Shown in pieces: positions 1,757 to 63,204 of a DNA stretch of 64,000 bases. Each line of letters opens with the position of its first letter. The first letter of the stretch is position 1. This DNA comes from a virus. Both the position numbers and the translations under genes were made by a program. Below the pieces are notes generated by a model that saw nothing but the letters and a program-made list of their open reading frames with translations, had not been told where the DNA came from and ran no database searches. The stretch covers positions 1-64,000 of the IMG/VR virus record IMGVR_UViG_3300020153_000001, one strand, 5' to 3'.

Positions 1757-1776
1757 TTTTGACTCCGGAGTCAAAA
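1757..1776. repeat. 20-bp palindrome TTTTGACTCCGGAGTCAAAA (copy 1, perfect)
   Basis: Read directly; about 40 bp upstream of the A1 start. Confidence 0.95.
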
Positions 1777-1783
1777 ACAGCGT

Positions 1784-2053
1784 CTAGACGATACTACTTT
1801 TTGTCTCGTTCTGAAACGATTTGTCGTTACAATTATGTTCTCCCGATCTTAAATCTCGAACATATCTTAGAACCTCTTCCGCCGTCATGAGACGTAGTCC
1901 CTTTTTGATAGCTTTCAGGCGAAGTCGGCACAATCTTCTGGCTAGATTCGTCTTGAACTTCACTTTAGTCCTTTCTAATCTAAAAGTCGCTCGCAGAACC
2001 TTATCAATACTAAAATAATGATTTCGACGGTCGAGAAGCTCCCGCCAAAGCAC
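1784..2053 (-). CDS. Small basic hypothetical protein
   Basis: 89-aa ORF with GTG start after AAGG; fills the gap between the duplicated units on the coding strand. Confidence 0.5.
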   Translation of the reverse strand: MLWRELLDRRNHYFSIDKVLRATFRLERTKVKFKTNLARRLCRLRLKAIKKGLRLMTAEEVLRYVRDLRSGEHNCNDKSFQNETKSSIV

Positions 2054-2154
2054 AGATAACCTTATTGTCCAGGCGGCGGGAACTTCTCGACACAGTCGTT
2101 TATTACCGCAGTTTTATCGTGATGACGCTCGATAGTCGTTACATTTTTTATTTG

Positions 2155-2757
2155 CTAATTTTCGACCGAAATGGATCTAGCAGACAGTATCGTTGTTTTC
2201 GCAACTGGCCATACTTCGGCTAGGAAGGAATGTAAAGGTACCTCTTCGTCCGGTTCTCCTTTTAGACGCCAGACGTAATAATCCATTACCGTCGCAAATC
2301 TGTCATATGAGTAGTTTACATCATCGGTCCAACAGCCTTGATCTGCAACGGCAATGTATAACCCACACAACACAAGAACTAGTTTGTAGATATTGGAGGT
2401 CCAGTGTACTTCGCCTATAGGATCCAGACTATGGCGGCTAGCAACGTAATTGCAAATATACTCTTCGAGCTTATTTAACCTAAGATCGGCGCGAGTAGCT
2501 GCATGTAAGATGTTGCTGTCGGTAAATGCTTTATCCTTCATGTTTTCCATAATGCCGATTAACGATATCCGTGTGGTCCGGCCGCACTGAAATAGATCAA
2601 ATAATCCATACAGACCTAACAAAGTCAAAATGTCGCCTTTGTCCGAATCAATATCCCCTGTCGATAAGATATCGCTAACGTCCTCGGCTAGGGTTAGCAA
2701 AATATCCTCAACAAGGCGGTTTCTAATCGTTCTTGTCAGTTCCGTTTTCTTGTCCAT
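2155..2757 (-). CDS. Hypothetical protein B2, paralogue of 99-689
   Basis: 200-aa ORF with clear similarity to B1. Confidence 0.85.
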   Translation of the reverse strand: MDKKTELTRTIRNRLVEDILLTLAEDVSDILSTGDIDSDKGDILTLLGLYGLFDLFQCGRTTRISLIGIMENMKDKAFTDSNILHAATRADLRLNKLEEYICNYVASRHSLDPIGEVHWTSNIYKLVLVLCGLYIAVADQGCWTDDVNYSYDRFATVMDYYVWRLKGEPDEEVPLHSFLAEVWPVAKTTILSARSISVEN

Positions 2758-3781
2758 TGTTAGATCCTTTCACGTCCTGTTTAGACTCTTGCTGACTATA
2801 GCTTGGATCCCGGACAGCCGATTCAACAACTTCGCACACTCTACCCTCAACCCTCCGCGGCAAAAACGGAGCTATCTTGGACAAATACTGTAGTCGTTTT
2901 GTCGGAGTATCTAATTTAGAAATCGAGTCTAGTACAAGACTAGCTAGCTCAGTCCAGTAAGCCGTGTTCTTAATCTGTTCGGACATGCATAGAAGTATAG
3001 TCTCAATGTTATAAAGATTTCCATACGCTGGATTCGATAGTATCTTTGTCAGAGCCTGTTTGAGCAAACCGATTGCTTGATAGCTGGGGATATACTTACT
3101 GGAACTTATCAGAAACAACGCCCGATGATACGGATCTAAAAGTCGGTCTATCTCCGCGACAGCGTTCGACTGGCGTTGCAAACTAATACTCGAAGCAAAA
3201 CATTCGATAAAACGTTGCGCTATGAATGGTCGGCATACTTTGGTAAAGCGCGGCAGCAGATCACAAAACTGACGTGCTACGTCCTCAAATACGATACCAT
3301 TGTTATAAAATGATCGGAATATTTCCAAAATAGAAAAGGCACAACCCGTAATCGCACTACCGGGCAAATTTGTCAAATATTCCACGAAAAATCGCCAAAG
3401 AGCCCTCGCGGGACCACTATCGCATTCCCTAGATTCCAGTACGCTGTGTACTAGAGAAAGAATATCTTCGGGCCGACGATTTTGTGCAACCATATTGTTC
3501 AATACAGCGACTATCTGACCCGGCGGTCTACGGACCAGAAGCGTCCCCGCTGTCTTGATCGGCCATTTTGAATGCGTCTCCTTCAAAAGTATATCAATAA
3601 AACGTTGCAGACCCTTACATCGCTTAGGGAAGAATGGGGCAAGGCATTGGACTACTAGGACGTCATCTCCTAGCTTATTCTTAACTCGCTTCCACGTATT
3701 GGCGGCGTTTATCATTGACCTACGCCGCTTGGCCTTAGACGTTTTGACCTGCGGCCTTCTTGACATAACTTTCTTCTTCAT
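2723..3781 (-). CDS. Hypothetical helical protein A2, paralogue of 655-1716
   Basis: 352-aa ORF with AAGGAG SD and clear similarity to A1. Confidence 0.85.
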   Translation of the reverse strand: MKKKVMSRRPQVKTSKAKRRRSMINAANTWKRVKNKLGDDVLVVQCLAPFFPKRCKGLQRFIDILLKETHSKWPIKTAGTLLVRRPPGQIVAVLNNMVAQNRRPEDILSLVHSVLESRECDSGPARALWRFFVEYLTNLPGSAITGCAFSILEIFRSFYNNGIVFEDVARQFCDLLPRFTKVCRPFIAQRFIECFASSISLQRQSNAVAEIDRLLDPYHRALFLISSSKYIPSYQAIGLLKQALTKILSNPAYGNLYNIETILLCMSEQIKNTAYWTELASLVLDSISKLDTPTKRLQYLSKIAPFLPRRVEGRVCEVVESAVRDPSYSQQESKQDVKGSNNGQENGTDKND

Positions 3782-3821: not shown

Positions 3822-3840
3822 TTTTGACTCCGGATCAAAA
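3822..3840. repeat. Palindrome copy 2 (TTTTGACTCCGGA-TCAAAA, 1-nt deletion)
   Basis: Read directly; same position relative to A2 as copy 1 to A1, with the shared flank CTAGTCAGTA. Confidence 0.9.
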
Positions 3841-3889: not shown

Positions 3890-4543
3890 CTAGCTTATAT
3901 TCGTCTTATATCCTTTCTTCGTCTCCTCTAAAAGTTTTCTCCATAATTTGAATCCTTTATGGAATACCTTCAGCGTAGGACGAATAACATCATAATATTT
4001 TGCATACATAACACACTTGAAATAGTCGAGCACTAGATAATCCCAATATATATCAAGTTCTCCGTTACTTTTGGAAAAGCTTTCAAATTCTTCCATCGTG
4101 GGAAACGGGGCAGTATGCGGCAATTTCATGGCTTCATATAGTCTCTTCATGTCATCTAGACATGATTTAGCCAGAGGCTTTACCTCATATGGAAATTCTA
4201 TGTCTGCAGACGGGTTTATCGTCTTTGCAAATTCTTCGAGATCCATCCCCTCGAGCTCCGCGCCATCAATCATAAACCCGCCCTCGAATCCGCCATCGGT
4301 AAGTGTCCATAAAGCCCAATGAGAAGAACCGATCAGCACGGACTCCATGTCTAAATTACGATATGAACAACCGGGAAATACAATAAAACGATTAAATATA
4401 ACCCCAGACGGCTCTCCGTCGGTCATGAGACACGACAGCTCCGGATCAAGATGTCCTCCTTCCAGTAGGACTTTCTTGGCCCTTTCAAGTAGTACCCTCG
4501 TTCTGTACTTTCCCACGCCCTCAACAAACGTATAAACGCTCAT
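3890..4543 (-). CDS. Hypothetical protein
   Basis: Start moved to MSVYTF (ATG 4543, GGAGAGG SD). Confidence 0.75.
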   Translation of the reverse strand: MSVYTFVEGVGKYRTRVLLERAKKVLLEGGHLDPELSCLMTDGEPSGVIFNRFIVFPGCSYRNLDMESVLIGSSHWALWTLTDGGFEGGFMIDGAELEGMDLEEFAKTINPSADIEFPYEVKPLAKSCLDDMKRLYEAMKLPHTAPFPTMEEFESFSKSNGELDIYWDYLVLDYFKCVMYAKYYDVIRPTLKVFHKGFKLWRKLLEETKKGYKTNIS

Positions 4544-5525
4544 CAGCCAACCTCCTCTCCATATCAACAGCTTCGGTAAGCGCAGTACTAAGGAAGTCCA
4601 TCATAAAGTTATAGTCTCCACAAAACATGGAGCGCTCCATGTCGCCGCGCAACATATAGACGAACGGCAAAGCCCGTCTAGCCGACGGGCAGTTTACGCT
4701 ACTATCTATCATATTGAGTAACGATTCTAGATTCTTTTTGCCTACAGGCAACTGTAACAGTATAGTCCACTGTAACATGTAAGCTGCACTAGATGCTGTG
4801 TCGATAACGTTATGGAACAACGTCTCGTTTAGCTTGTCGAAACACAACAGTACTAGCGCCGCCTGCGTCGCCGTATATGTGCTACGTTCGGCCGCGATAA
4901 ACTTGAGCGCTTGGCTTATGATGCGATCTTCGAGATGTTGAGCATACCGCATATTCTTAAGAATAATGTCAAACAACATTGTTATAGCCTGAGGGTCGCT
5001 ACTATCTTCGAGCATATCTAGAGCACACAATAGTACCTTCTCGCCTTGGAAATGCTCCAATACAAAACAGCGCGCATATTCGCTAAGTTCGCCATTGAGT
5101 GCCTTATCTAAAAGCTCATATGCCGCAGCATCGCTGATATGCGTTATAGTCCTAACGACCAATCTTAGATATCGAGGCTTGCTGCGACCGTCTGTGCTCG
5201 ATAAAACGTTGAACAGAAGATTTTTTATCGTCGGATCTTTTCTTGCAAGCTCTGCAAGGTAGCCGACGATAGTATTGGCTGCCGCGCCAGTGGCTCGTTC
5301 CAGACAGATTAGTAAAGTCTCCTTATCTTTCAGGCATATTGCCAGCTTGGCTGCCGTCAGTACGCCACGGCTTTCTACCAATTTTGCCGCTTTTCGTAAA
5401 ATGGATATGAGCTCGTCTTCTGCTCGCATAGAGCGGCAGACAAGAAATGTAGAAAGAAGCGCGCACTCGTCGACGATATTCGAGTTGTCAAAGACAAGAC
5501 CTTCTAGCTTTGTTGCCTCTGCCAT
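4521..5525 (-). CDS. Alpha-helical repeat (HEAT/ARM-like) hypothetical protein
   Basis: 334 aa, Leu/Ala/Cys-rich helical pattern, AAGGAG SD. Confidence 0.75.
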   Translation of the reverse strand: MAEATKLEGLVFDNSNIVDECALLSTFLVCRSMRAEDELISILRKAAKLVESRGVLTAAKLAICLKDKETLLICLERATGAAANTIVGYLAELARKDPTIKNLLFNVLSSTDGRSKPRYLRLVVRTITHISDAAAYELLDKALNGELSEYARCFVLEHFQGEKVLLCALDMLEDSSDPQAITMLFDIILKNMRYAQHLEDRIISQALKFIAAERSTYTATQAALVLLCFDKLNETLFHNVIDTASSAAYMLQWTILLQLPVGKKNLESLLNMIDSSVNCPSARRALPFVYMLRGDMERSMFCGDYNFMMDFLSTALTEAVDMERRLADERLYVC

Positions 5526-7498: not shown

Positions 7499-8389
7499 CT
7501 ATCTTGGAGGTGCGGGCGTTGGTTCGCTTTTTCGCCCAATTACAAGCCTGGCCTCTGCTTCTCTCCTTAGCTGTTCTCTCTTCTCGAAGCATTCAGAAGG
7601 CTTGATCTTGCTGTCGGTAATAAACAGCAAGTGTTCCTCTTTGAGCCACTCCCTAACTCTTGTTATTGGTATGAACCACCCCATATGAGGAAAGATCTGA
7701 GACCAACTACCGGCTACTCGGCTAGGTACTCCTATAAAGTAATAATCGCTATTGTGTTCCGTAAAGACCGCGCCGCCGCTGTTTCCGAATACAATATTCG
7801 CCGTGCCCATCCAGTACACTTTTTTGTCGATAACATCGTCTAGATAGTTAATTTCGCCCTTTGTGGCTACCGGTGGGTGTCGCAACGAGCAGCCGACGGC
7901 GTAGATAGGCTGAAAGATATAGACCTTGGCGTCTGGCGGCAACAGCTTTGCGACGTGATCCAGCTTGCGGCTTGTCTTAAGCTTTAGAAGAGCCAGGTCG
8001 TGTTCCTTTGAATGGGCAACGATCTCTGCCTGACAAGCATCGGTAAAGTCCTGACGACTGCCGGCGGTATAGCGGAATATTTCCACCTTAACCTCGTCGT
8101 TTGCCTCTCTTTTAACATCCTGCTGCAACAGTGAAGACCACTCTGTCACCACGTTAATAGCGCCTTCGACAACGTGGTGATTGGTAAGAACGTAAGTCTG
8201 ACAGCCGTCTCCACGATCCTCGCTGTACAGGATAGTGCCGGACCCGCCCGCATTCTTTGCGGTGACTCTAACAACCGGATAAAGCATTTGGACATGCTTC
8301 TTTTCAACATCAGGAGGCAGATCTCCGGCTAGCAGTAAAGATGCCATAAAAGACAACAAAACGGCGCTTGTGGCGGTACGAACTGACAT
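7499..8389 (-). CDS. Exported trypsin-like (S1) serine protease
   Basis: Catalytic triad motifs TNHHV, HDLALL and GNSGG. Signal-peptide-like N-terminus MSVRTATSAVLLSFMASLLLAG; AGGAGG SD. Confidence 0.85.
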   Translation of the reverse strand: MSVRTATSAVLLSFMASLLLAGDLPPDVEKKHVQMLYPVVRVTAKNAGGSGTILYSEDRGDGCQTYVLTNHHVVEGAINVVTEWSSLLQQDVKREANDEVKVEIFRYTAGSRQDFTDACQAEIVAHSKEHDLALLKLKTSRKLDHVAKLLPPDAKVYIFQPIYAVGCSLRHPPVATKGEINYLDDVIDKKVYWMGTANIVFGNSGGAVFTEHNSDYYFIGVPSRVAGSWSQIFPHMGWFIPITRVREWLKEEHLLFITDSKIKPSECFEKREQLRREAEARLVIGRKSEPTPAPPR

Positions 8390-8477
8390 TTTTTCTTCCT
8401 CCTTACTAAACGGACAATACTTAAAAAAACCGACGAACAAATAAAGTCTAACGAATTACCACAAAACAAGCAAGCTT

Positions 8478-8497
8478 GTTTAACTCCGGAGTCAAAA
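8478..8497. repeat. Palindrome copy 3 (GTTTAACTCCGGAGTCAAAA, 2 mismatches)
   Basis: Read directly. Confidence 0.85.
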
Positions 8498-8578
8498 CCT
8501 GAAGAAAGGCGTAATGAAGCTGGCCTTGAATAACACGGTTAAGCCGCATTATTACTATCCTTGTAAACAATATGAAGA

Positions 8579-8598
8579 TTTTGACTCCGGAGTCAAAA
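8579..8598. repeat. Palindrome copy 4 (perfect)
   Basis: Read directly; 101 bp from copy 3. Confidence 0.95.
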
Positions 8599-10641: not shown

Positions 10642-10661
10642 TTTTGACTCCGGAGTCAAAA
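10642..10661. repeat. Palindrome copy 5 (perfect), immediately upstream of the ruvC ATG
   Basis: Read directly. Confidence 0.95.
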
Positions 10662-10702
10662 GTTCGTAGATTCTCACATAAATTGTGCACAAACAGCTAA
10701 AA

Positions 10703-19451: not shown

Positions 19452-19483
19452 GCTAATTTTTGACTCCGGAGTCAAAAATTAGC
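19452..19483. repeat. Palindrome copy 6, extended to a 32-bp perfect palindrome
   Basis: GCTAATTTTTGACTCCGGAGTCAAAAATTAGC; core 19458-19477; overlaps the TAA of 19479-19889. Confidence 0.95.
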
Positions 19484-29629: not shown

Positions 29630-29649
29630 TTTTGACTCCGGAGTCAAAA
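29630..29649. repeat. Palindrome copy 7 (perfect)
   Basis: Read directly; 1 nt after the TAA of 29651-30418. Confidence 0.95.
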
Positions 29650-34904: not shown

Positions 34905-34930
34905 CAATTTTGACTCCGGAGTCAAAATTG
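34905..34930. repeat. Palindrome copy 8 (core 34908-34927, extended to 26 bp); contains the protease TGA stop
   Basis: CAATTTTGACTCCGGAGTCAAAATTG. Confidence 0.95.
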
Positions 34931-40132: not shown

Positions 40133-40904
40133 TTTTTGACTCCGGAGTCAAAATTTCAAAGTTCGGCACTAATTTGGCGCTTTCGAGAAGCTTCTTGTCA
40201 CCCCAGTTCCAACCCAGTCGGCTTATGCTGTCAGCCAGGACTTTATGCAGATTGTCGATTTCTGGTCTCTTCGCGTCATCTGACACGGCCGACAGGAACT
40301 TCTCGGCGTTTGTTTCGACAAGTCTATCGCTAAACGCTACCTTAACAGCTAGACGTCGCAGGGCAGTTTGCTTAAGGCATATCTTCCAGAAATCTTTACT
40401 CGAAACGCCGGACATTATCGAAGCATCATATATCACCTCGTCGATAACTTCCTTACCGCCGCAGAACGCAAAGAACTTCCATATAGCCTCCCTGGACGGC
40501 TTACCATCAATTACTTCTATAATGGGGTATATAAGCCGTTGGAATATGTAGCTGTGATTGTTCAACCTATCTCTTATATTATAAAACCAAGCTTCGTAAA
40601 ACCGCACGACGTCACTAGATGCGGATAGTCTGCTGGCTATATCGTTGTCAGACTGACCGGCTATAATCCTTGCCTCAATTTCCCACTTCACCGAAGCCAA
40701 CACTTCTTTGGAGTAAATGCTCTCAGCCGTACGCTGCTCAGAAGTTTGCTTGCCGCGCATGTAATCTATAGCTAAAAGCACATAATCATCGTTATCGTCG
40801 GTACGCGGCAATTCTGAATTGTCCTTGAGCGTTTGCGCACGGCGCCATCGCCAGTCCGGTGGTCGCCATATATCGGACTTGGTAAATTCGTGCTCTGATT
40901 TCAT
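40122..40904 (-). CDS. Hypothetical protein (possible HTH; small-terminase-like candidate)
   Basis: 260 aa; IAGQSDNDIASRLS HTH-like segment; C-terminal LTPESK is encoded by the palindrome. Confidence 0.6.
   Translation of the reverse strand: MKSEHEFTKSDIWRPPDWRWRRAQTLKDNSELPRTDDNDDYVLLAIDYMRGKQTSEQRTAESIYSKEVLASVKWEIEARIIAGQSDNDIASRLSASSDVVRFYEAWFYNIRDRLNNHSYIFQRLIYPIIEVIDGKPSREAIWKFFAFCGGKEVIDEVIYDASIMSGVSSKDFWKICLKQTALRRLAVKVAFSDRLVETNAEKFLSAVSDDAKRPEIDNLHKVLADSISRLGWNWGDKKLLESAKLVPNFEILTPESKNGS
40134..40153. repeat. Palindrome copy 9 (perfect)
   Basis: Inside the 3' end of 40122-40904; 1 nt before the ATG at 40132. Confidence 0.95.
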
Positions 40905-48544: not shown

Positions 48545-48564
48545 TTTTGACTCCGGAGTCAAAA
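48545..48564. repeat. Palindrome copy 10 (perfect); holds the beta'-C TGA stop and the next gene's GGAG
   Basis: Read directly. Confidence 0.95.
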
Positions 48565-53234: not shown

Positions 53235-54866
53235 CTAAGGCTGGTATTTAAAAAAGCCTTTTGTCAAAATATCAATTATCGGCGTTGTATATGTTTTACT
53301 AAACTCGCTTTCAGGGATAGGCGGCTTATATCCATATCTCATTCGACGTATATTAATATACCCGTCGCCAAGTCTGCTGCGGCTGGGTCCGATTGTACGA
53401 AAATATGGAATTACGTCTTCTACAACCCAGTCAATCGGGGTCTTGACTACATCTGAACCGCCTGGCAGCAGCCCCGCGCGCTTAGCCGACTGAACAAGTG
53501 GATGGTCGTCAAGACCTTTTACATATCCAATGAAAGCTATACTAAACGCATCAGCCGCAATCTCGCTTACAGTCCTTTGTAGGGAGTTCTCGATAGGAAG
53601 CGGGTAATTCATACTATGCCCAAACTCGTGGGCGAATACAGGCAGCTTATCCGATGTTTCAATGGTGTGCGTGCGAGGGCGATAAGCGCCTAGTAATTCC
53701 GGTGGCGGTGATTTTACCGATAGTCCGGGAAACCTAGTACCGAACTTGTTGTATAGATGATTTAAAACTTCTCCTACTCTACTCCATTCTTCAGTTTTCA
53801 ATTGCACCCGGCGATCTACTATTGCTGACGCCGCTTCGACTTCGCCAAGTATCAACTCAAGTTCATCTAAGTCACTTTGCAAAATTGTAGACATATTTTC
53901 TGGCTTGACCGCCGTTGGGCTCTGTGCAATGCCGAGGCGCTCGCTAAGCCTCCTGAGTGGGCCGGGCAGTTTTGGTGTTCTGCTAATTTCTGGATACGTA
54001 TAAAGCTCAGCTACAACTGGGCGTTTTGAAGGAAACAAAGTACGAAGATGGGACATTTGGCTGTCGCCTGTAATGAGCCCCTTTACTACCTGCTGTGCTT
54101 GCTCTCGACCGAATCTTTTCGTGAGAAACTGTTTCAAACTGTCTATAGATTCGCCACCATGAACCACTCCAACAGCCAACGAAACGCGCGCCGGATCTGC
54201 GAGTATTCTTTTTACAGCAATCTGCCTCTCTGACGGATCAATATCGAACATATTTACAAAAGACTCAACAGCAGAACGCACTTCATCCGAAGTCATCTGG
54301 CTGATGACAGGAGCATATTTGTCGTGGAAGCTGCTTAGGAGATGCTGTGCGGCCACGTCCGCGACGCCAGGATAGAGCCTCATTGTCAAATCCATTACTA
54401 GCCTGTCTCTTAGCGTCGCGTCAAACCGCTGCCCACCAACTATAGACCTTACCTCTTCAGGATAAGATATTAGAATCGCAGACAAATAGCGCCCAGCTAG
54501 ATCATTTTTGGTCTTATCGTCAATGCTCGCCAGATAGGCGTTAAAATCGGGCTTATCCGATGAAAATATATGTTGCTGTACCGGCTTTGCCAGCAGCGAT
54601 CTGGCAAAGAATTCAAAATCAGGTCTGAAGCTAATTGCCGAACGGCCCAACAACGCGTGGTACGATCTGTCTAGCGGCGCTATTCCAATAGCTCGATTAA
54701 GAGCTGCTGCTAGGGGGTGCCCGAGAACGTCCGGAGTAGTCTTTACTTCAATAGGCTCAAACTCGCTATAACGCCCCGTTGCTGCAGAGTATGTCTTCTC
54801 AAGCGCGCGCTCTCCGGATAAAAGTTTCCTTAAGTATGTATATACGTTCGATACCGCGGCTGGCAT
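53235..54866 (-). CDS. HExxH metallopeptidase-like protein, paralogue of 54985-56703
   Basis: AHEFGH and SEIAADAF; shares LYPGVAD and DDHPLVxxAKRAGLLPGG with its neighbour. Confidence 0.85.
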   Translation of the reverse strand: MPAAVSNVYTYLRKLLSGERALEKTYSAATGRYSEFEPIEVKTTPDVLGHPLAAALNRAIGIAPLDRSYHALLGRSAISFRPDFEFFARSLLAKPVQQHIFSSDKPDFNAYLASIDDKTKNDLAGRYLSAILISYPEEVRSIVGGQRFDATLRDRLVMDLTMRLYPGVADVAAQHLLSSFHDKYAPVISQMTSDEVRSAVESFVNMFDIDPSERQIAVKRILADPARVSLAVGVVHGGESIDSLKQFLTKRFGREQAQQVVKGLITGDSQMSHLRTLFPSKRPVVAELYTYPEISRTPKLPGPLRRLSERLGIAQSPTAVKPENMSTILQSDLDELELILGEVEAASAIVDRRVQLKTEEWSRVGEVLNHLYNKFGTRFPGLSVKSPPPELLGAYRPRTHTIETSDKLPVFAHEFGHSMNYPLPIENSLQRTVSEIAADAFSIAFIGYVKGLDDHPLVQSAKRAGLLPGGSDVVKTPIDWVVEDVIPYFRTIGPSRSRLGDGYINIRRMRYGYKPPIPESEFSKTYTTPIIDILTKGFFKYQP

Positions 54867-54883: not shown

Positions 54884-54903
54884 TTTTGACTCCGGAGTCA
54901 AAA
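54884..54903. repeat. Palindrome copy 11 (perfect)
   Basis: 17 nt upstream of the ATG at 54866. Confidence 0.95.
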
Positions 54904-54984: not shown

Positions 54985-56703
54985 CTATTCGCGATTATCG
55001 TTTTTAATAGTCGAGTGGGCTCGTTCCAAATCGTCGACGTTCGGCGCAAGCGGTCTGGCAAGGTCGCGCATTAACGGGCTTAGGAAGTTATCCGACCCTA
55101 TTACGCGGCCGAGCGAAGAGCGTCCAAGCTTCCTATACACAGAGATACTGACATCACCTAAAGCGCTTCGACTGGGGCCTGCGCGTTCTACATAAGGTAT
55201 GACGTCCTTTATCACCCAGTCAAAAAGGCCTGTTGTTTGTTTTGCCCCGCCCGGAAGCAAACCAGCGCGCTTGGCTAATATAACAAGCGGATGATCGTCC
55301 TTACCATACACGTATGCCGTTGCTGCTATCGAAAAGGCGTTAGCGATGATCTCCCCGACTAGATTCGTATAGTAATCGTTTTCTAGCGGACTACCCTCAA
55401 ACGAATAGGTCAGGCCGTGGGCGAGCTCGTGGAAAAACGTAGATAATTTTCTATCCATCATCAGCTTTCGTTCCCGCGGCAGGTAAAGACCTGCCGCGTC
55501 GGGCGTAGGCTCCTCCGGCGAAATCCCTGGCAGAGTTCCACCGAATCTTTCATATAAGTGTTTGACGACCTCTTCGGCTCGCGCCAGCTCTTTGTCCGAC
55601 AACGTTTTATCTTCAATCGCTACACCAATAAGTCCTAATGTCCCTGCTAGCTCTCCGTGAACTAGCTCAAGCCTTCCTACTTCTCTAACTCCATCCCTCA
55701 AATCTTCTAAATCTTTTATTGATACATCGAGAAACCATATTAGATTTTCTCTGGAAGGCTCTGTTATCGGTCTGCCGTATTGCGGTCTTATTCTCGTTTG
55801 TGGTAACGCAAGAATTTCCGTGACAAGTCCGCGACCTTCTCTAGGTGTCGAATAAAGCGGCCTGACGCGCTCACTTGCTCTGCCAGCGGTAAGCCCGCGC
55901 ATGATGGACTTGATCTGCTCATCATCTACTTTGCCAGCTAGGAAATCCTTTAACTGATCAATAGAGTAGCCTCCGCTTGCTACCACTGCTGCTAGGGTAG
56001 TTCGTCTTGGGCTTAGTAGTATCTGCGATATGGCTTTTTCCCTATCCTTGCCGCTAATACCAAACATGTCAACATACTTTTCGGCAAGCAAGCGTTTATC
56101 CGCCGGGCTCATTTGATTAACGATAGGGCCGAATATTCTGTAATATTCGTCTGCCAACTGGTCGGCGGCGATGTCAGCTACACCAGGATAAAGATGAAAG
56201 ATAAGCTTTAAGAACAAGGTATCTCTTAGCGCGTCGTTAAATGGTAATCTTCCTATTATTTCCCGCTCTTTTTCTGGCGTACGCGCGAACAGGTGGCTTA
56301 GGAAACGACCGGCCAAACTGGCACGTACGTTAGGGTCAACGCTCGCTAAGAATTTAGAAAAATCTGGATTTTCGGAAAGAAGATACCTTCTGACAGGCTC
56401 GTCTAGGGCTTGTACAGCCTCTCGTCTGAACTTATCGTTGAACGTAAGGATTGATTTACGTTTTAGTTCTTCGTAAGTAGGCGTTAGCGCTTGTATTCCA
56501 GTAACTCTTGTTGTAGCGGCCTCTAACGGCGTAAGGTACGACGGCAAATACGTGGGTAATATAGCATTAGCTGCAGAATATTCCTTGGGACGGCCAGTTA
56601 GGGCAGAATAAGTAGAAGCCGGACCGGTAGGTTCCGGCTTACCTGACAGTAGTTGCTTCAGCTGGTTATAGACATAGCCTATAGGACCACCGTTACCATT
56701 CAT
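54985..56703 (-). CDS. HExxH metallopeptidase-like protein, paralogue of 53235-54866
   Basis: FHELAH and GEIIANAF; AAGGAGG SD. Confidence 0.85.
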   Translation of the reverse strand: MNGNGGPIGYVYNQLKQLLSGKPEPTGPASTYSALTGRPKEYSAANAILPTYLPSYLTPLEAATTRVTGIQALTPTYEELKRKSILTFNDKFRREAVQALDEPVRRYLLSENPDFSKFLASVDPNVRASLAGRFLSHLFARTPEKEREIIGRLPFNDALRDTLFLKLIFHLYPGVADIAADQLADEYYRIFGPIVNQMSPADKRLLAEKYVDMFGISGKDREKAISQILLSPRRTTLAAVVASGGYSIDQLKDFLAGKVDDEQIKSIMRGLTAGRASERVRPLYSTPREGRGLVTEILALPQTRIRPQYGRPITEPSRENLIWFLDVSIKDLEDLRDGVREVGRLELVHGELAGTLGLIGVAIEDKTLSDKELARAEEVVKHLYERFGGTLPGISPEEPTPDAAGLYLPRERKLMMDRKLSTFFHELAHGLTYSFEGSPLENDYYTNLVGEIIANAFSIAATAYVYGKDDHPLVILAKRAGLLPGGAKQTTGLFDWVIKDVIPYVERAGPSRSALGDVSISVYRKLGRSSLGRVIGSDNFLSPLMRDLARPLAPNVDDLERAHSTIKNDNRE

Positions 56704-56739: not shown

Positions 56740-57816
56740 CTATTTTGACTCCGGAGTCAAAGATTTTTGGGCCCTGCTACCTAAAGCCCGAATTATGGGG
56801 TCAAGCAGTCTTCCTAATCCGCCTCGCGGCCTATCGTTTCCGAATTTATCCATAAACTCCTTCACCTTCTTATAAGTGTTCGCTCTTTCCGGATACCAAC
56901 TTATCCAATGCTGCGCCAACCATCTATCCGGAATAGTGCCGCTATATCCCAGTACGGCTAGAGACGGCGGAACAAATTTCTTAGAAATCGGGAAATCCGG
57001 TACGGCTTCTTTTAAGGCCTTCCATTCTGGCCAATCTGGTTCCGGCAGCCAACCGGCGCTTACTGCCATCACGACAGGCCATGTCAGCTTATTGTTATAG
57101 TAGTCGAGAACTGCGGCGGCAAACGTGTTTGCGCCAATTTCATTTATAGTACGCCATATCGTTACCATCGAAGCCAGCCTTGGGTCTCTTACCATAACAT
57201 AAGGCTGATCTTCGTCACCCTGCAGACCAAAGTAGTCAAAAATACTTTTAGCCATGAGCGTATCCAACGAGTGTCCTAACTCGTGGGCGATAACGGCTGT
57301 TCCTTTAGGCGTTGCCATGACATCTGGATCGATGATCAGCTTACCTGTGAGTGCGTTAAATCCACCCAACAAGGAGGGCTGTCTACCGACTTCGGCTGAT
57401 GTGATATATGGCATGGCTCGAAGTGCGGCATAATCTAGAATCTGCTTAACCTTTGCCGTATCAACCAACCTTCCGCCGCTTGTAGCTGCATTGAGCGCTT
57501 GCCACAAACGCTCCTCGGATTCGGTTTGCGCCCTACCTATCGGGGAGGAAAAAAATGCCGGTGCAGAAGAACTAGCGTCTTCGGGCATAATACTATGTAG
57601 TTTGGCAACCATTTTTGTTACCGGACCGCGCAACTCCTGTTCTTCCTGATAACGAATGTCTTTTATAGTAGGACCATATTCCGACCATTGATACAGACTA
57701 TTTAATAGGTCAACATTATGTGCCCGTTGTTCGTGGTGATGTGTAACGGGGGGTTCTTTGCTTTGGGCGTTTTTTAGCAGGTTTTGTAGATCATTAACGG
57801 CTCGTTTGCAGATCAT
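56740..57816 (-). CDS. ImmA/IrrE (M78)-like metallopeptidase-domain protein
   Basis: IAHELGH and NEIGANTFAAAVL; ends in LTPESK*, encoded by the palindrome. Confidence 0.8.
   Translation of the reverse strand: MICKRAVNDLQNLLKNAQSKEPPVTHHHEQRAHNVDLLNSLYQWSEYGPTIKDIRYQEEQELRGPVTKMVAKLHSIMPEDASSSAPAFFSSPIGRAQTESEERLWQALNAATSGGRLVDTAKVKQILDYAALRAMPYITSAEVGRQPSLLGGFNALTGKLIIDPDVMATPKGTAVIAHELGHSLDTLMAKSIFDYFGLQGDEDQPYVMVRDPRLASMVTIWRTINEIGANTFAAAVLDYYNNKLTWPVVMAVSAGWLPEPDWPEWKALKEAVPDFPISKKFVPPSLAVLGYSGTIPDRWLAQHWISWYPERANTYKKVKEFMDKFGNDRPRGGLGRLLDPIIRALGSRAQKSLTPESK
56743..56762. repeat. Palindrome copy 12 (19/20 match)
   Basis: TTTTGACTCCGGAGTCAAAG. Confidence 0.93.
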
Positions 57817-57832: not shown

Positions 57833-60800
57833 TTATTTCTCGATTATCTTTATTGGCTGGTCTATAGCAATTTCTCCTCTAGCAAACGCGGCAAGCGCGT
57901 CTTTTTTCGTTTTAAATATTTTTACTGGTTTACGGCTATCGACGCGACTAGCATACCATAGGCCGATGAGATAGTCTTGTTGGGGGGTATAAACAGGCTC
58001 TGCAAATATGGCTGCTTTGAATAGATTCTTCGACGGTAGCAATTTATCGTAGGCTTCCTTGACGGCGTCGTCGGATGCGGGTACATGGAATTGCATCGTA
58101 TCGCCGTCGAAGTCAGCGCCAAAGGCCTGTGTAATAAGAGGGCTTATCTCTATGGTTTTACCCGGTATAAGAACGGGTCGAAACGCCATAATTCCGTACT
58201 TGTGAAGCACGGGCGCGCGGTTTACTACAACAGGCCGCTCTTGGATAACACGTTCCAAAGACTGCTTAGCATAGGGATGGCGCTCATTAACAAGCATATT
58301 CGCCACTAGAAACGGCGAAGCACGTAACGCTGGCGGAACGTTACGAAGCACGCTATCAGGAAGGCCGCGATGCATTAGGTCGCGAATAATAAACGGCTTA
58401 TACGCGACCCAAGCCGCCTCCTCGGGAATACCTATCTCGTCAATATCTAAAGAACTGTTCGGCGTAATGACTGCCCTACCAGCCAGCGTGGCACTAATAC
58501 CAAGCATTTTTCTCTGCATTATGCTGGCTTTCGGGCTGGAACCAACCACGGTAGCCAGCAAACCCTTAATACCCTGCTTCTTCAGGGCGTAGCTATGTGG
58601 ATCGTCTAGGCCTGTAAGCCCGTAAAAGATGGACATGAGCGATCTTCGCTCTTCCCGTAGATCGCTAATATCCGAGGCCAGTTCTTTATAAGCGCCGATG
58701 AAGTCGATGAGCTCTTTATAAAGATAGTTCGCATCATTAACGACAAGCGTGCCGTCTTTAATCATCGAGATAGGTCGAAAGATGGGCGGAATGACTGGAA
58801 CTTTGGTCCAAAATAGCTCGGACGGGTGGATACTAAAGCGTTTGAGGCCTTCAAGGTAGTTTAGCTTTTTGATAAGCGACGACCGTTTCGATGGCGTAGC
58901 AGTTTGGAGTTCTTCCCTGGTACGCGTTATTTCTCTATCGACGTCATAGTTTTTAAATAGTTCATAAAGCGCCATCGGACCGGATATAGGCCCTTTTGAT
59001 TGACGATACCGTTCAGGTATGGGAAGCTCGCCAGCAAATATGCTAATGAGGTCCTTCTCGCTTACGCCAATCAATCTACCAAGCAGTTCCACCATGATTG
59101 GGTTTGGAACCGGCTCTGGTAGCTTGATGGCGCTCCACCGCGTGCCAGCTAGACCTCCGGTAAGACCGTCGTCAAACAGCCCACCCTCTACCGTTCGGAA
59201 ACCGTCGCTATAGACACGAACTGTCTCGGAGTTCTGAACATATCGGTTACCCGCTAGTTGATCTATATCTTTATCTCGAAGCGCAAGAAGCCGTATACCA
59301 GAACGTTCTTGGATGGGGTTAATCCCTGCCCCTCTAAGCAAGGCGACAAATTTGTGCCATATATGCGGGATCTTGGGCTGCGGTAGGCTGTGGCCAGTCA
59401 TAAATTGTCGCCATGCCTCATCGTTCGCTTGTCCGCGGATAAGTGCGGCATCGGTTATTGTGTTGTACGCGCCGTGCGCCAACAGCGCGTTAAGCTCAAG
59501 GATCCCCAACCGTTTGGCTTTTCCCGATTCACCAACAGTGGGGATATCTTCTGCGCTTGCAGCAATAGCCTCGTCTACGGCCTGAAGCTTATCTTCTGCA
59601 ATATGGCACAGGCGCAGAATATATCCATAGCCTGTAAGCGCGCGTATTTTTCTACCCGTAACGGGATCTGTGAGCACTTCTGTATCGCTAACACCATGCT
59701 TCTTTAGCACGTCAGAAACGTATTGATGCAGCCTGTCGGCGTGTTCAAAATCCTTTACATAGATTGGCTTTCCTATCTTCTTAGCAACCTTCCCTAGAAG
59801 TGCTTCATATATTTGACCAATATTAGCCCGCGAAATAATAAACGGCGACGCGATGATATCGACAGGCTTGCCATCTTCGCCTATGGGCATCTGGCTATCG
59901 GGTTTAATGATAACGACGCCTTTATTTCCATATAGCCCCGCAATCTTATCTCCTTGTTGGGTCTCGAATATCGACTTTACGATAGCAACAATGCCCTCTT
60001 TTGTCTTACCAGCCGCTATTACTATCCCAGGCGCGTCATAGTCCCACGTAACGCTGTCATCAACAAACATCTTGTGGGAAGCTCTAGCGGTGGTGATAGG
60101 AAGCATCTTGGCACTAAGAATAATCGGCTCGCCCTTACGGAGAACCGTTCCTGGCCGCGCCACGCCCTCGTTAGTATACTTCTCTAAGTCCTCAGCGGTC
60201 ATTTTGCCAGGAAATAGCGACACGTAAGCCTGTTTTCCGCTAGGCTCTGCTGTTTGGTGCTGATAGACAAAAAGATTCTCGGCAGACAGTTTGCGCGCAA
60301 ATGACTGTGAGATAACGAAAGCGTCTTCGTATGTATCGCCGGTAGCCATATAGGCAATCTTTGCGTTTGTTCCCACCGCAAGATTGCCGTTTATATCGGT
60401 AAAATTGCTATAAGCCAAAAGCTGGCCAGGCTTTACGACATCGCCAGGCTTTACAAGCGGCTCGTTATATAAAGCCGTCTGCCTGGCATAAGGCGTATTG
60501 TTGTGCAACCAGATCTTCTTTGTGCTTCGGCTGTCAGCGTCATAAAGCTCGATAAAATCGGGAGTTACTTTGCGTACGACCCCCTTATATGGGCTATAAA
60601 CGGCACCAGCGTATTTTCCAAATATTGATACAAACGGTCTTCCACGGCTATCAACCGATTGCACTAAAGGCGCTTCTCTGTTTATGATGGGCAATGCTTG
60701 CGTAATAAATCGGCTTCCCATCGCCACGCGCTGCGGGAAGCAGGCGCTTTTCATGGGGATAAGTGACGCAAGCGGACCAAAGATATGCGTTGCATCCTTG

Positions 60801-62191
60801 ATGTAATGCGTTATTTTTTCCCTTGGTACGAAGAGCTCGTAGCCTTTTGATATTGCACGAACGTAACGACGACCGCTTTCTAGCTCGCCAGGGAACGCTA
60901 TCGTAACGTCCTCTACTTGATCCGATCTTAGCCAAGTCTCCTTATTTGTCTTTGCGTCGATGACTGGAATATAAAGAAGGCCGTCCGATCCTCGTCTTGC
61001 CGAGATTGTCATCCTTGTTTCTACCCCTACTTTGAGGGATTCTGGGGTAGTAACAGGGTCGATAAATCCTAGCTGCGTAGCATGGACGTCCCTGGCAGAA
61101 GATGGGATGGCCTCTACGGCGCCTATACCACCCTCCCCCATTCGTGTAAGACGGAAGGCGTGGTCAAGGATTTCGACGGGGTTGATCTCGGCTGGCGCCA
61201 TCACAAGCCCAGAAGCGCGAATTACATGATCAACGATAGGCTGGGCTGGTCTTGGCGGTATGATCTCTTTTTTGGGATTACGCATGGCCTTCCAGAGGAT
61301 ATTTCTTAAAATGAGGCGCATCTTTGCAGGGACGTTTTCGGCAAAGATATCCTCTGGACCAAGGAACTGCTGGTTGGCCAAAGAGTCTCTATCGTCTTCT
61401 CTGGCCTTGCCTTGGAGAAGCTGGATCATCTTGGCTGTAGCTGCTAGCGCCGCGCGTTTGTCGACATAGTTCTGCATTAGCCCTAAGTTGCGGCGCATCA
61501 CGTCCTGCGCTACAGGAACTTGCAAGAACTCGCGCGCAAGATCTACATCCGTAGAGCCAAACATTCTTTTGGCAAAACGCCGCGCATCTTCTACTTTCTC
61601 TGTTACATTGCGTGCCAGAAGATCAGCACCCCATGCTTGCCTTAGCTCTTCATCAGTTACTCCGATAGCTCTTAGAATAGGATAAAGCCGAAACTTCGCC
61701 TGTCCTGCTTGTATGTAGAATATGCCTGTCGTAGGGTCGAGTACGTAACGATGGGTTTTGCCGGCTGGGAGGTTGATGAAAGCCTCCGGCTCCCCTGTCT
61801 GACGGAACCGGACGTAGACGCCAGGTTTTAGCCGTTGTTGGTTCGTAATGGAATACTCAACGCCGCCTATAACAAAGACGCCTCGGTCGGTAAGATAGGG
61901 AACTTTGGCAAGAAGTGTGCGTTTCTCGATAACGCCTGATGGCGTTGTTATTCGTATCGTTCCATAAAGATCCCGCGCCAGTGTGCTGTTTGTGATAATG
62001 GCGCGCTTGTGATTAATAGGGCTTAAGATTTCTTCTTCTGGTTCCTTGTCTTTATATTCCACGTCTTTTAGCTCGATAGTCCAGTTACCCTGGCTATAAG
62101 AAGGCGTGGAAATAAAAGAATTACGGACAGCGTCGAAGATACGCTGCCGTATCGTCTTAACATCGGCAATATCGATAAGCTCGCCAGTCAT
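57833..62191 (-). CDS. rpoBC: RNA polymerase beta subunit fused to the N-terminal half of beta'
   Basis: Beta motifs: RDVHATQLG..TPES, GDKIAGLYGNKG, SRANIGQIYE, RLGILELNAL. Junction near 59305. Beta' motifs: PVIPPIFRP, GRAVI, NRAPVLH, GADFDGD (58100-58120). Confidence 0.95.
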   Translation of the reverse strand: MTGELIDIADVKTIRQRIFDAVRNSFISTPSYSQGNWTIELKDVEYKDKEPEEEILSPINHKRAIITNSTLARDLYGTIRITTPSGVIEKRTLLAKVPYLTDRGVFVIGGVEYSITNQQRLKPGVYVRFRQTGEPEAFINLPAGKTHRYVLDPTTGIFYIQAGQAKFRLYPILRAIGVTDEELRQAWGADLLARNVTEKVEDARRFAKRMFGSTDVDLAREFLQVPVAQDVMRRNLGLMQNYVDKRAALAATAKMIQLLQGKAREDDRDSLANQQFLGPEDIFAENVPAKMRLILRNILWKAMRNPKKEIIPPRPAQPIVDHVIRASGLVMAPAEINPVEILDHAFRLTRMGEGGIGAVEAIPSSARDVHATQLGFIDPVTTPESLKVGVETRMTISARRGSDGLLYIPVIDAKTNKETWLRSDQVEDVTIAFPGELESGRRYVRAISKGYELFVPREKITHYIKDATHIFGPLASLIPMKSACFPQRVAMGSRFITQALPIINREAPLVQSVDSRGRPFVSIFGKYAGAVYSPYKGVVRKVTPDFIELYDADSRSTKKIWLHNNTPYARQTALYNEPLVKPGDVVKPGQLLAYSNFTDINGNLAVGTNAKIAYMATGDTYEDAFVISQSFARKLSAENLFVYQHQTAEPSGKQAYVSLFPGKMTAEDLEKYTNEGVARPGTVLRKGEPIILSAKMLPITTARASHKMFVDDSVTWDYDAPGIVIAAGKTKEGIVAIVKSIFETQQGDKIAGLYGNKGVVIIKPDSQMPIGEDGKPVDIIASPFIISRANIGQIYEALLGKVAKKIGKPIYVKDFEHADRLHQYVSDVLKKHGVSDTEVLTDPVTGRKIRALTGYGYILRLCHIAEDKLQAVDEAIAASAEDIPTVGESGKAKRLGILELNALLAHGAYNTITDAALIRGQANDEAWRQFMTGHSLPQPKIPHIWHKFVALLRGAGINPIQERSGIRLLALRDKDIDQLAGNRYVQNSETVRVYSDGFRTVEGGLFDDGLTGGLAGTRWSAIKLPEPVPNPIMVELLGRLIGVSEKDLISIFAGELPIPERYRQSKGPISGPMALYELFKNYDVDREITRTREELQTATPSKRSSLIKKLNYLEGLKRFSIHPSELFWTKVPVIPPIFRPISMIKDGTLVVNDANYLYKELIDFIGAYKELASDISDLREERRSLMSIFYGLTGLDDPHSYALKKQGIKGLLATVVGSSPKASIMQRKMLGISATLAGRAVITPNSSLDIDEIGIPEEAAWVAYKPFIIRDLMHRGLPDSVLRNVPPALRASPFLVANMLVNERHPYAKQSLERVIQERPVVVNRAPVLHKYGIMAFRPVLIPGKTIEISPLITQAFGADFDGDTMQFHVPASDDAVKEAYDKLLPSKNLFKAAIFAEPVYTPQQDYLIGLWYASRVDSRKPVKIFKTKKDALAAFARGEIAIDQPIKIIEK

Positions 62192-62194
62192 TGT

Positions 62195-63172
62195 TTAAGA
62201 GAGGAAGTGAATCGTACGCTTTTCGTTGGTGCGTTTTGGACCTTCTTTAGCAAGCCCGTAAGGTATGGCGGGACGACCTGCGCTTTGCTCGACGGTCTTA
62301 TGCTGGAAGATCTGCTGGAATTCGTCAGGATCGATCTCAACAGGGTAAGGGGAACCAGACAGAATACTAAGCGCTTTCCCTACAGCAGCTTGCTCTGGGT
62401 CAGGAGAATGCGGGCTGGCTTGCTCGAAGGCACGATATGTTAAAAGGGCCGCAACGACTCCTAAACCATATAGCCCATAGACAAACGCCGGCGGGACGGC
62501 CGATATAATCTGCCATAATACGCCTGAAGAAGCCGTCTTTGTAAGCGTTACTCCCACTTCTGGCTTTGCGGGACTATCGTCCGTGCTCACTGCGGAGTCA
62601 AACGGCTCTGGCATCTTAGCCTTAATTAGCCGTTTCAACGACGCAAGCATCCTCTTCTTGGCCGCCGCTACGTCTTCTGAGACCTCTGCTGTAAGCTTTG
62701 AATTTGTAATAAGATCGCCTATCTTTCCTCCTACCCACGACCCAAGCCACACTAAGAGTCCCGTCATCGTAAAGCCTGCAACATGCCTTAGCGATTGTAT
62801 GGGCATATAGCCAGAAACATACTCAATACCTTCCGCAGTAAGCGCAACGGGAAGGGGAAGGGTAACGGACTGTTGAGCCTGCTTAACTTCTTTAACCACA
62901 CCTATCCACTCTTCCTTAGGGATGCCGCCATAAAAACGCTGCTGACGAACCTTCTCTATCGCAGACCGCACGGAATCGCGTAGCTTGTGGAGGCTAAATA
63001 CACTTCCTATCGCCGATATCGCCATTGAGCCTAGCAAGGCATACCACATGATTTCCGCGGCAGTAACGCTTTCGGGGGATAGGGCAGACATTGTTTGGGC
63101 GTTCTTAACGAATCTCTTGTCAATATAGTCAAAGAAATCTTCAAGGTCGCGTCGGGTGATCGTAACACTCAC
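62195..63172 (-). CDS. Membrane-segment protein with three K-x-A-delimited hydrophobic units
   Basis: Probable GTG start at 63172 (frame open to 63262); VKNAQ, VKQAQ and TKTAS each precede a hydrophobic helix. Confidence 0.7.
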   Translation of the reverse strand: MSVTITRRDLEDFFDYIDKRFVKNAQTMSALSPESVTAAEIMWYALLGSMAISAIGSVFSLHKLRDSVRSAIEKVRQQRFYGGIPKEEWIGVVKEVKQAQQSVTLPLPVALTAEGIEYVSGYMPIQSLRHVAGFTMTGLLVWLGSWVGGKIGDLITNSKLTAEVSEDVAAAKKRMLASLKRLIKAKMPEPFDSAVSTDDSPAKPEVGVTLTKTASSGVLWQIISAVPPAFVYGLYGLGVVAALLTYRAFEQASPHSPDPEQAAVGKALSILSGSPYPVEIDPDEFQQIFQHKTVEQSAGRPAIPYGLAKEGPKRTNEKRTIHFLS

Positions 63173-63184
63173 GAAACCGCTCTT

Positions 63185-63204
63185 TTTTGACTCCGGAGTC
63201 AAAA
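63185..63204. repeat. Palindrome copy 13 (perfect)
   Basis: 2 nt after the TAA of 63207-63608. Confidence 0.95.

Follow-up and report, generated by a model that had tools for sequence, protein, structure and literature searches.

A dispersed 20-bp palindrome at the gene junctions of a virus contig and a candidate ParB-like protein that may read it

What does a 20-bp palindrome do that recurs almost unchanged at the gene junctions of a virus, and which protein reads it? The question is raised by the first 64 kb (the window) of a single 135,539-bp virus contig (IMG/VR record IMGVR_UViG_3300020153_000001; here called G000), which has a GC content of 47% and an estimated completeness of 94%. An initial annotation, made from the letters of the window alone, had counted 10 perfect and 3 variant copies of the palindrome, TTTTGACTCCGGAGTCAAAA, and had proposed four roles for it: a hairpin promoter for the phage's own RNA polymerase, an operator or parS-like site for a homodimer, an RNA-processing site, and a recombination or packaging site. 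The second of these fits our results best, and the other three are not favored. The 20-mer is likely a dispersed site in duplex DNA that is read two-fold symmetrically by a dimer of a phage protein, and a candidate of the ParB helix-turn-helix (HTH) type was found for this reader.

The palindrome is its own reverse complement, its CCGG center included. A pattern search allowing up to three mismatches found 12 matches in the window, 10 perfect and 2 variant, against a chance expectation of about 0.01; none of 100 shuffled sequences reached 12. With the third variant, a one-base-deletion copy (3822-3840), all of the copies counted initially were recovered at the same starts (Table 1). The whole G000 genome contains 32 copies, 28 of them perfect.

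The copies keep to gene borders, as had been noted at first. All 32 are located at gene junctions, and 27 of the 32 site centers fall outside the interiors of open reading frames (ORFs), which make up 85% of the genome (P ~1e-22); the remaining five fall inside over-extended or spurious ORF calls, as at 10642, where the true start of the RuvC-like gene comes 3 nt past the copy. The genes of G000 are almost wholly on the minus strand, and about 15 of the 32 copies overlap the upstream stop codon or sit no more than 7 nt away from it. At three copies the stop codon is the palindrome's own internal TGA (34908 and 48545 in the window), and at 40134 and 56743 the element encodes LTPESK, so the coding overlap described earlier also stands. 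Only seven copies lie within 5 nt of the next start codon, the gap being 1 to 3 nt at seven junctions. One copy, at 71063, is placed between divergent genes, and seven of the 32 are clustered in a 6-kb early/noncoding RNA/tRNA region (65.7 to 71.6 kb). Overall, the sites are spread somewhat more evenly than expected by chance (maximum gap, 10.2 kb; P = 0.017). Outside the 20 bp, conservation is limited to weak, symmetric A/T flanks, with no mark of direction.

The exact 20-mer gave no hits in a search of IMG/VR, two single copies in 241 million metagenome records, and one copy in 596 Gb of reference genomes, which is chance level. This near-absence elsewhere, together with retention at orthologous junctions (see below), agrees with the view of the element as phage specific and not a host repeat. 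A literature search with the palindrome core found no match either, as the initial annotation had supposed, although the kind of element is known, for example from the 17-mer of Cluster O mycobacteriophages.

Orthologous junctions and a mirrored allelic series

Using the RNA polymerase beta-beta'N protein (57833-62191) as the query, we found five related viral contigs. Megablast of 20 kb against named phages gave no match, and the nearest named phages, Salmonella phage Arash and Vibrio phages, have RNA polymerase identities of only about 30%. The relative G001 (144 kb, complete, with terminal repeats; RNA polymerase identity, 83%) is collinear with G000 and carries 38 copies, 33 of them perfect, of TTTGATTCCGGAATCAAA, mostly with A5 and T5 on either side; the bias toward the upstream stop codon is also seen there (12/38). 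G006 and G007, 74-kb and 43.5-kb fragments of one phage with protein identities to G000 of about 50 to 60%, carry 13 and 7 copies of TTTGAATCCGGATTCAAA. In G002 (85-kb fragment; RNA polymerase identity, 39%), we found five copies of an unrelated palindrome, TCTATTGGCGCCAATAGA, four of them at junctions; its center is symmetric as well. G005 (IMGVR_UViG_3300018080_000104; 195 kb, complete; 41%) has about 5 to 8 copies of AATTTGTCTGYCGRCAGACAAATT, with less clean placement. No dispersed palindrome was found in the fragments G003 and G004 (39% and 31%). Other repeats in G004 and G005 were considered as dispersed sites and rejected, being coding tandem repeats or a local array.

The palindromes of G000, G001, and G006/G007 differ at one position per half-site, mirrored between the halves as C/G, T/A, and A/T, which gives the halves GACTCC/GGAGTC, GATTCC/GGAATC, and GAATCC/GGATTC, respectively. 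The fourth possible allele, TTTGAGTCCGGACTCAAA, was searched for and not found. The synteny test suggested in the initial annotation was carried out: among the G000 sites with an orthologous flanking gene, a site is present at the same junction in 16 of 25 cases in G001 and in 5 of 10 in G006. By synteny and tblastx, three junctions carry a site in all three phages, namely, the primase/DNA polymerase junction, the junction after a 640-aa protein, and the junction upstream of the trypsin-like protease (G001 site 84336 and G006 site 64256, both mapped 3' of the orthologous protease gene). A stricter junction test confirmed the first two in G001 and all three in G006, and it found no G001 site for 8478/8579. 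The alleles C:G, T:A, and A:T at orthologous junctions predict a three-by-three binding matrix.

The G001 counterpart of the 40134 junction carries a decayed copy, ACGAATCCGGAGTCAAA, that keeps a G000-type GGAGTCAAA half and not the G001 allele. Judging from these letters, it looks like a fossil that predates the allele switch. Both genes flanking 40134 persist in G001 despite the decay of the site. Of the eight single-mismatch copies in the relatives, five have the dyad center changed from CCGG to CTGG or CCAG (e.g., G001 16889, 28737, and 30468; G006 11391; G007 32204). These are CpG-deamination-type transitions, which could perhaps point to methylated cytosines in the site.

In each half, the one position that varies is the N of a GANTC word. 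This would suit a selfish or defense-related DNA word, either a miniature mobile palindrome or a target of restriction, nicking, or methylation (two GANTC words and TCCGGA), as would the frequent CTGG and CCAG centers and the fact that paralogous genes bring their copy along (see below). However, GANTC, CCGG, and TCCGGA occur at the expected frequency outside the palindrome, neither avoided nor enriched, and no N6/N4 methyltransferase domain (PF01555) was found. Copies shared at orthologous junctions across about 50% protein divergence are also unlike a recent insertion, and we saw no clean presence/absence polymorphism of the 20 bp. We consider such a DNA word very improbable. A recombinase core site of the 7-6-7, tyrosine recombinase type is likewise not favored, as 32 symmetric sites among essential genes would presumably permit deletions and inversions.

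Promoter, terminator, and RNA readings of the element

The RNA hairpins that the palindromes could form are weak, at -5.7 kcal/mol in G000, -2.5 kcal/mol for the G001 core, and -3.2 kcal/mol in G006. With a weak hairpin that is followed by A's rather than U's in G000, the element is not built like an intrinsic terminator. The initial annotation had pointed to a T-tract before the hairpin and an A-tract after it; in a self-reverse-complementary sequence, this arrangement holds on both strands. Ordinary strong terminators occur elsewhere in G000, some of them directly upstream of a palindrome. The T-runs of these terminators often end in a fixed word, TTTTTAGCT(A), with 13 copies in G000 (e.g., window 19392-19402 and 10692-10702) and 14 to 19 in G001; the word is also present in the distant G005. 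Its likeness to half of the KorA/KorB operator words, TTTAGC, is probably a coincidence.

Could the element act in RNA, as an intercistronic hairpin that is a target for cleavage or binding by a sequence-specific factor, a shield for 3' ends, or a link between the translation of neighboring genes? Nearly every copy is transcribed and hugs the upstream stop codon, several G000 genes have GGAG 7 to 9 nt before their ATG, and the allelic change preserves pairing (C-G to U-A or A-U). Set against this are the weak folding and the symmetry of the four loop positions, which the independent G002 palindrome shares; a hairpin loop would not need to be symmetric. The GGAG is lost in the relatives (GGAA and GGAT), structure alone would not hold all copies identical, and the 71063 copy between divergent genes is out of keeping with an intercistronic role. 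An Rfam scan of the window found no family, and a search of sequencing runs matched no RNA run, only DNA runs labeled as hot spring or sediment metagenomes. An RNA element is, in our judgment, quite improbable.

The palindrome could instead be a promoter or specificity element for the phage's sigma-dependent, multisubunit RNA polymerase, either as an N4-like extruded hairpin or with TTGAC as a -35 box. In its favor, nearly identical copies recur roughly every 4 kb just ahead of genes, in the manner of T7-type promoter sets, and some come straight after strong terminators. The element contains TTGACT, and all copies change in concert between phages, as T7 and T3 promoters do. The phage also has a virion-type RNA polymerase and a sigma-70-family factor (compare the Arash virion proteome, PMC10585845). 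On the other side, a perfect dyad gives no direction, while the genome is transcribed almost wholly one way. The arrangement of a sigma-70-type promoter, with directional -35 and -10 boxes 16 to 18 bp apart, was not found: TTGACT is present, no base outside the 20 bp is conserved, and TATAAT-like -10 boxes have no fixed distance to the palindromes. The start codon follows 1 to 3 nt after the element at seven junctions, and the 40134 site decayed in G001 while its flanking genes persisted. G000 and G001 share an identical recognition helix in sigma region 4, yet it is precisely the TTGA-N-T word that sets their palindromes apart. We therefore regard a promoter function of the palindrome as improbable.

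The comparison with phage N4 comes out in the same way. N4 has three directional hairpin promoters with a 3-nt loop, which serve a single-subunit virion RNA polymerase. The two cases share a short inverted repeat that is, or in G000 would be, recognized by the phage transcription machinery. In contrast to N4, G000 has 32 direction-less sites with a weak hairpin and an even-length, fully symmetric center, and its polymerase is a multisubunit enzyme with a sigma factor. Given these differences, the unchanged sigma region 4 helix, and the separate directional motif described below, the N4-like hairpin promoter proposed at the outset is not favored.

A better promoter candidate than the palindrome is a directional two-box motif, GCTAAAGA followed after about 12 to 14 nt by GGCATTTAAATATGG(G) and often then by a perfect hairpin that starts at the GGG and, after it, a U-run. 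It occurs in 12 copies in G000 (Table 1) and about 20 in G001, where the copies cluster in the early region, and its sequence does not change among the three phages, G006 included. This motif is probably the promoter of the phage polymerase and its sigma factor, and the hairpin a 5' stem-loop or attenuator. The distance from a palindrome to a two-box motif downstream of it ranges from 4 to 143 nt and is not fixed. The full dyad symmetry, the weak hairpin, the lack of direction, and the lack of a fixed distance to promoter boxes together speak more for a dimeric protein on duplex DNA than for a promoter or an RNA hairpin.

A candidate reader with a ParB-like domain

The candidate reader of the palindrome is a 402-aa protein encoded outside the window (genome 121880-123088, minus strand), in which the ParB HTH model gave a weak match. 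A profile of three orthologs of this protein retrieved 239 relatives of its C-terminal 230 residues. Of 48 homologs, 43 match Pfam DUF1016_N (best, 4.6e-12), with weak HTH_ParB hits, and a 48-sequence profile has matches to ParB chains, among them Bacillus subtilis Spo0J (E = 0.0013), that fall in the helices following the HTH. A word-indexed homolog search returned only the protein itself, and the three-sequence profile had no match in the PDB.

The model of the full-length protein is poor (predicted local distance difference test [pLDDT], 48), and the AlphaFold model of the C-terminal domain has a mean pLDDT of 95. The best Foldseek matches of this domain are the DNA-binding domains of ParB, Noc, and SopB (probability, 0.99 to 1.0; E ~0.08). 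With VIA-align, the top 12 matches are ParB, Spo0J, and Noc entries with Z-scores of 9.3 to 7.2 over about 100 residues; the root mean square deviation is about 3 to 4 Å for eleven of them, and the outlier is 6s6h_B (121 residues at 10.7 Å). KorB-operator (Z 5.4) and SopB and VirB (Z 4.6) come next. A Foldseek-independent search placed ParB-parS first (Z 7.5), and over both searches the KorB DNA-binding domain is among the matches at Z 5.4 to 5.8. By its model, the C-terminal domain of the candidate is a ParB/Noc/KorB-type HTH, an assignment at the fold level that we base on the agreement of three methods and on no single score.

No ParB_N CTP-binding domain (PF02195) was found in the six frames of G000 at E <=0.1, and the N-terminal 170 residues of the protein matched no Pfam family. 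Since a CTPase domain is missing, we count the protein only as a carrier of a ParB-like HTH and not as a member of the ParB-CTPase family. In the model, residues 154 to 228 form a long helical hairpin, a plausible dimerization element. Between the HTH part and this hairpin lies an Arg/Gly/Pro-rich loop (KPRGRGP in G000) whose kind is conserved in five lineages. By analogy with ParB, in which a Lys/Arg loop touches the minor groove (PMC7383237), the loop could read the AT-rich ends of the site. The predicted recognition helix differs between lineages, reading NNTIRTLYK in G000, NRTIRTLLN in G001, and LKSTRSLHY in G006.

Profile searches of eight records found a homolog of the candidate in G000, G001, G002, G005, G006, and G007 and none in G003 or G004. 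The protein and a dispersed palindrome thus co-occur in six of eight records (five of seven lineages), and the other two have neither; this co-occurrence is suggestive, and the count is soft because G002, G003, G004, G006, and G007 are fragments. In G003, the DNA polymerase/RecA-like neighborhood is sampled, and the homolog is missing from it. Among the more distant relatives, the same protein family is paired with quite different palindromes. The candidate gene follows a RecA-like gene (Pfam RecA) with an overlap of 4 nt, and the order DNA polymerase, RecA-like protein, candidate reader is kept in G002 and G005. A palindrome heads the RecA-like/reader operon in G000 (124366), G001 (101304), and G002 (9849), the last being G002's own different palindrome directly after a terminator. 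This is the arrangement expected for autoregulation of the reader.

The 402-aa protein is the most likely reader of the palindrome, a proposal on which we see the balance as about even. In the major groove, each recognition helix would read a single half-site (TTGA-N-TCC); minor-groove contacts would be made to the AT-rich ends; and the N base of the half-site would coevolve with the reader. The array would then work like the KorB-OB sites of plasmid RK2, with one protein setting transcription genome-wide at unit borders by repression or insulation, including autoregulation of its own operon. We infer the binding of the protein to the sites as well as the effect of that binding; KorB-like global control is suggested by the border placement after stop codons, the clustering in the early region, and the site ahead of the reader operon. 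As it has no CTPase domain, the protein could not be a sliding clamp of the KorB type, and a fixed roadblock, insulator, or repressor would be the simplest form of action. We lean slightly toward this explanation as a whole, that is, a dimer site, the 402-aa reader, and KorB-like control at unit borders.

Several points weigh against it. The distance from the sites to promoter-like boxes is not fixed, and for this reason a simple operator mechanism does not suggest itself. The Pfam matches of the G000 protein itself fall below curated cutoffs (DUF1016_N, 23.7 bits against a cutoff of 32.8; E = 5.7e-5), the fold Z-scores are middling for an all-helical domain, and the ParB_N domain is missing, in addition to the softness of the co-occurrence count. 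No site lies ahead of the reader operon in G005 or G006, and G005 has few copies, several of them inside crude ORF calls. There is also a second DNA-binding candidate, an 80-aa winged-helix protein (see below).

Given the RecA-like neighbor and the even spacing, the main alternative to global control is an architectural or recombination role like that of Noc-NBS or ParB-parS. The array would mark phage DNA for recombination-dependent replication, genome compaction or organization, or self-recognition. The candidate gene sits in a replication/recombination module with a gene order that distant relatives share, the phage has genes for RuvC-like and SbcC-like proteins, and the missing fixed geometry to promoter-like boxes, a difficulty for an operator, is none here. 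Yet the sites shun gene interiors and hug borders, which a purely architectural site need not do, and more than a fifth of them (7/32) are crowded into the early region. No ParA-like partner was found, and the CTPase domain is likewise missing. We hold a marking role to be unlikely.

Among described systems, the KorB-OB system comes close to the global control that we favor. The OB operators of the IncP plasmid RK2 have the core TTTAGCGGCTAAA, with AT-rich arms around a GC center (PMC11790492; structure 1r71). Both systems have a ParB-type HTH protein and many identical short palindromes on one replicon, with global control in RK2 and as proposed here; KorB differs in having a CTPase domain and in acting as a sliding clamp with KorA. 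OB sites number about a dozen on a plasmid, whereas the phage site is 20 bp long and is present in 32 copies in a lytic-looking phage with its own RNA polymerase. Noc with its binding sites (NBS) and ParB-parS of Bacillus and Caulobacter are the best structural matches and likewise place a dimer on a two-fold symmetric palindrome. They are, however, cellular, use a CTP switch, function in segregation or membrane binding, and are only 12 to 19% identical to the phage domain; neither a ParA nor a membrane helix was found in the phage. NBS sites are scattered genome-wide, and four residues switch specificity between the Noc and ParB palindromes, which differ at two bases per half-site (PMC7383237). 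This two-base switch is a precedent for the one-base allelic series seen here.

Phages with comparable arrays are known as well. Cluster O mycobacteriophages carry a 17-bp dyad repeat, TGTTCGGNNNCCGAACA, in >30 invariant copies per genome, many of them in short intergenic gaps, mostly position-conserved in relatives, and not present in the host genome; the authors of that study suggested that a dimeric protein binds it, with an unclear regulatory effect (PMC4351075). The G000 array is of the same type, with tens of invariant dyad copies that are conserved in position and absent from other genomes. Unlike the G000 palindrome, the Cluster O repeat has a 3-bp variable spacer and a third of its copies inside genes, neither an allelic series nor a ParB-type candidate reader was reported for it, and the phage lineage is unrelated. 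The stoperators of Cluster A mycobacteriophages and the conserved inverted repeats of phiC31 are dozens of near-identical repressor sites in short intergenic stretches that coevolve with their repressor. Both serve lysogeny, and stoperators are asymmetric and orientation dependent, whereas the G000 site is a perfect palindrome.

What is new in this case is the sequence family, a mirrored series of three alleles at orthologous junctions together with its apparent fossil site, and the candidate pairing with a CTPase-less ParB-fold protein across a phage clade that carries its own sigma-dependent RNA polymerase. For the few phages with genome-wide invariant palindromes, such as those of Cluster O, the reader and the function are so far not known, and a candidate reader with a confident ParB-like model makes the question testable. 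If KorB-like control by this protein is true, it would extend KorB/Noc-style multisite control to lytic-type phages with their own RNA polymerase and would provide orthogonal protein-site pairs, possibly useful as tools. A further and rather doubtful step is to see the protein and the array as a fast-evolving address system of hot-spring phages with their own sigma-dependent polymerase, in which the array partitions the genome as an insulator or silencer. One mirrored base pair of every site and the recognition helix would have switched together, leaving fossil sites. To our knowledge, partition of a genome by such an array for a phage polymerase has not been described for any phage.

Other reader candidates, neighboring genes, and individual sites

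The 80-aa winged-helix protein has a real DNA-binding domain and an ortholog in G001 (46% identical). It is missing at the syntenic place in G006 and was not found in G002, G005, G006, or G007. As it is patchy in the relatives and adjoins no site, we rank it only as the second candidate for the reader. The RuvC-like resolvase is unlikely to set specificity, being unusually well conserved (53% identical) in G002, whose palindrome is unrelated. The sigma factor was rejected as the reader on account of its identical region 4 recognition helix in G000 and G001. About 90 other proteins were scanned against Pfam and PHROG without yielding another DNA-binding candidate, and searches with PF12728 and PF08535 found nothing.

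Table 1. Palindrome copies in the window and other features of G000 (window numbering unless marked genome)
Feature	Position	Strand	Context
Perfect copy	1757..1776		7 nt past stop of ORF 1784-2053 (-); 40 nt ahead of start of ORF 655-1716 (-)
Variant, 1-nt deletion in one arm	3822..3840		Between ORF 3890-4567 (-) and ORF 2723-3781 (-); directly after hairpin and T-run
Variant, 2 mismatches in one arm	8478..8497		37 nt upstream of trypsin-like protease gene 7499-8440 (-) (Pfam)
Perfect copy	8579..8598		Immediately after strong terminator hairpin (-29.9 kcal/mol); TTTT of the palindrome serves as the terminator's T-run
Perfect copy	10642..10661		Ends 3 nt ahead of ATG of RuvC-like gene 10196-10638 (-)
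Perfect copy	19458..19477		1 nt past stop of ORF 19479-19889 (-); motif GGCATTTAAATATGGG, hairpin, and U-run 6 nt downstream; orthologous G001 site 71019
Perfect copy	29630..29649		1 nt past stop of ORF 29651-30418 (-); orthologous G001 site 60566
Perfect copy	34908..34927		Internal TGA is stop of ORF 34922-36319 (-); orthologous G001 site 55143
Perfect copy in last codons of gene	40134..40153		Codes ..ILTPESK.. of ORF 40122-40904 (-); ends 1 nt before ATG of ORF 38786-40132 (-)
Perfect copy	48545..48564		Internal TGA is stop of RNA polymerase beta'-like gene 48559-50412 (-); ATG of ORF 45541-48543 begins 1 nt after copy; orthologous G001 site 41095
Perfect copy	54884..54903		Between ORF 54985-56703 (-) and ORF 53235-54866 (-); region without orthologs in relatives
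Variant, 1 mismatch at outer base	56743..56762		Codes C-terminal ..LTPESK* of ORF 56740-57816 (-); 39 nt before ORF 54985-56703 (-)
Perfect copy	63185..63204		2 nt past stop of ORF 63207-63608 (-); orthologous G001 site 20513
Two-box motif	19436-19451, 11437-11452 (-)		
Two-box motif	Genome 128708, 100735, 91536, 89833, 73904, 70323		
Two-box motif, further copies	Genome 69956, 68986, 68336, 67264		
Winged-helix protein, 80 aa (HTH_24, MarR, and others)	Genome 101379-101621	-	Beside SNase-like gene and retron-type reverse transcriptase region
RuvC-like Holliday junction resolvase	10196-10638	-	phrog_1770, E = 1e-26
Sigma-70-family factor	Genome 88383-89198	-	Pfam regions 3 and 4 above cutoff
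SbcC-like ATPase and neighbor, possibly SbcD-like	11471-13183, 13183-14253	-	
Multisubunit RNA polymerase, first gene	57833-62191	-	1,452 aa; matches beta and beta' families
Multisubunit RNA polymerase, second gene	48559-50412	-	617-aa beta'-like protein, 7.4 kb away from first gene
Group 1 glycosyltransferase	Genome 65889-66968	+	Flanked by palindromes, early region
Two adjacent radical-SAM genes	Genome 74245-75748	-	

The RNA polymerase is encoded by two genes, and the copy at 63185 lies upstream of the block that ends in the beta-beta'N gene. The sigma factor of G000 is a homolog of gp10, the virion sigma factor of Salmonella phage Arash, which was found in Arash virions (PMC10585845); a six-frame search with the region 2 model PF04542 missed it. 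A link to DNA or nucleotide modification is possible for the glycosyltransferase and radical-SAM genes.

Two paralogous genes of about 352 aa at 655-1716 and 2723-3781 (both on the minus strand) each have a palindrome, the 1757 and 3822 copies, followed by the same 40-nt leader (..CTGACTAGT..GTCTTAA..). The palindrome copy was duplicated along with its gene, and neither paralog has homologs in the relatives. Similar duplicated units are present in G001 at 28736/30467 and 36326/37959. The copies at 8478 and 8579 form a pair 101 bp apart. The interval between them (8498-8578) holds a possible 33-codon mini-ORF, with a frame that runs through the 8478 copy, which is probably not a gene. In G001, four site pairs are 55 to 61 bp apart, with a small hairpin between the members of each pair. 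G005 has, near one genome end (184.9 to 190.3 kb), an array of about 25 units of about 95 nt each, in which a conserved 40-mer, GATTATGTTCTGTTGGTCTTGGTAGTAAAGTGTGCTTTGC, precedes about 55 nt of sequence where ..GC recurs with a period of 5 nt.

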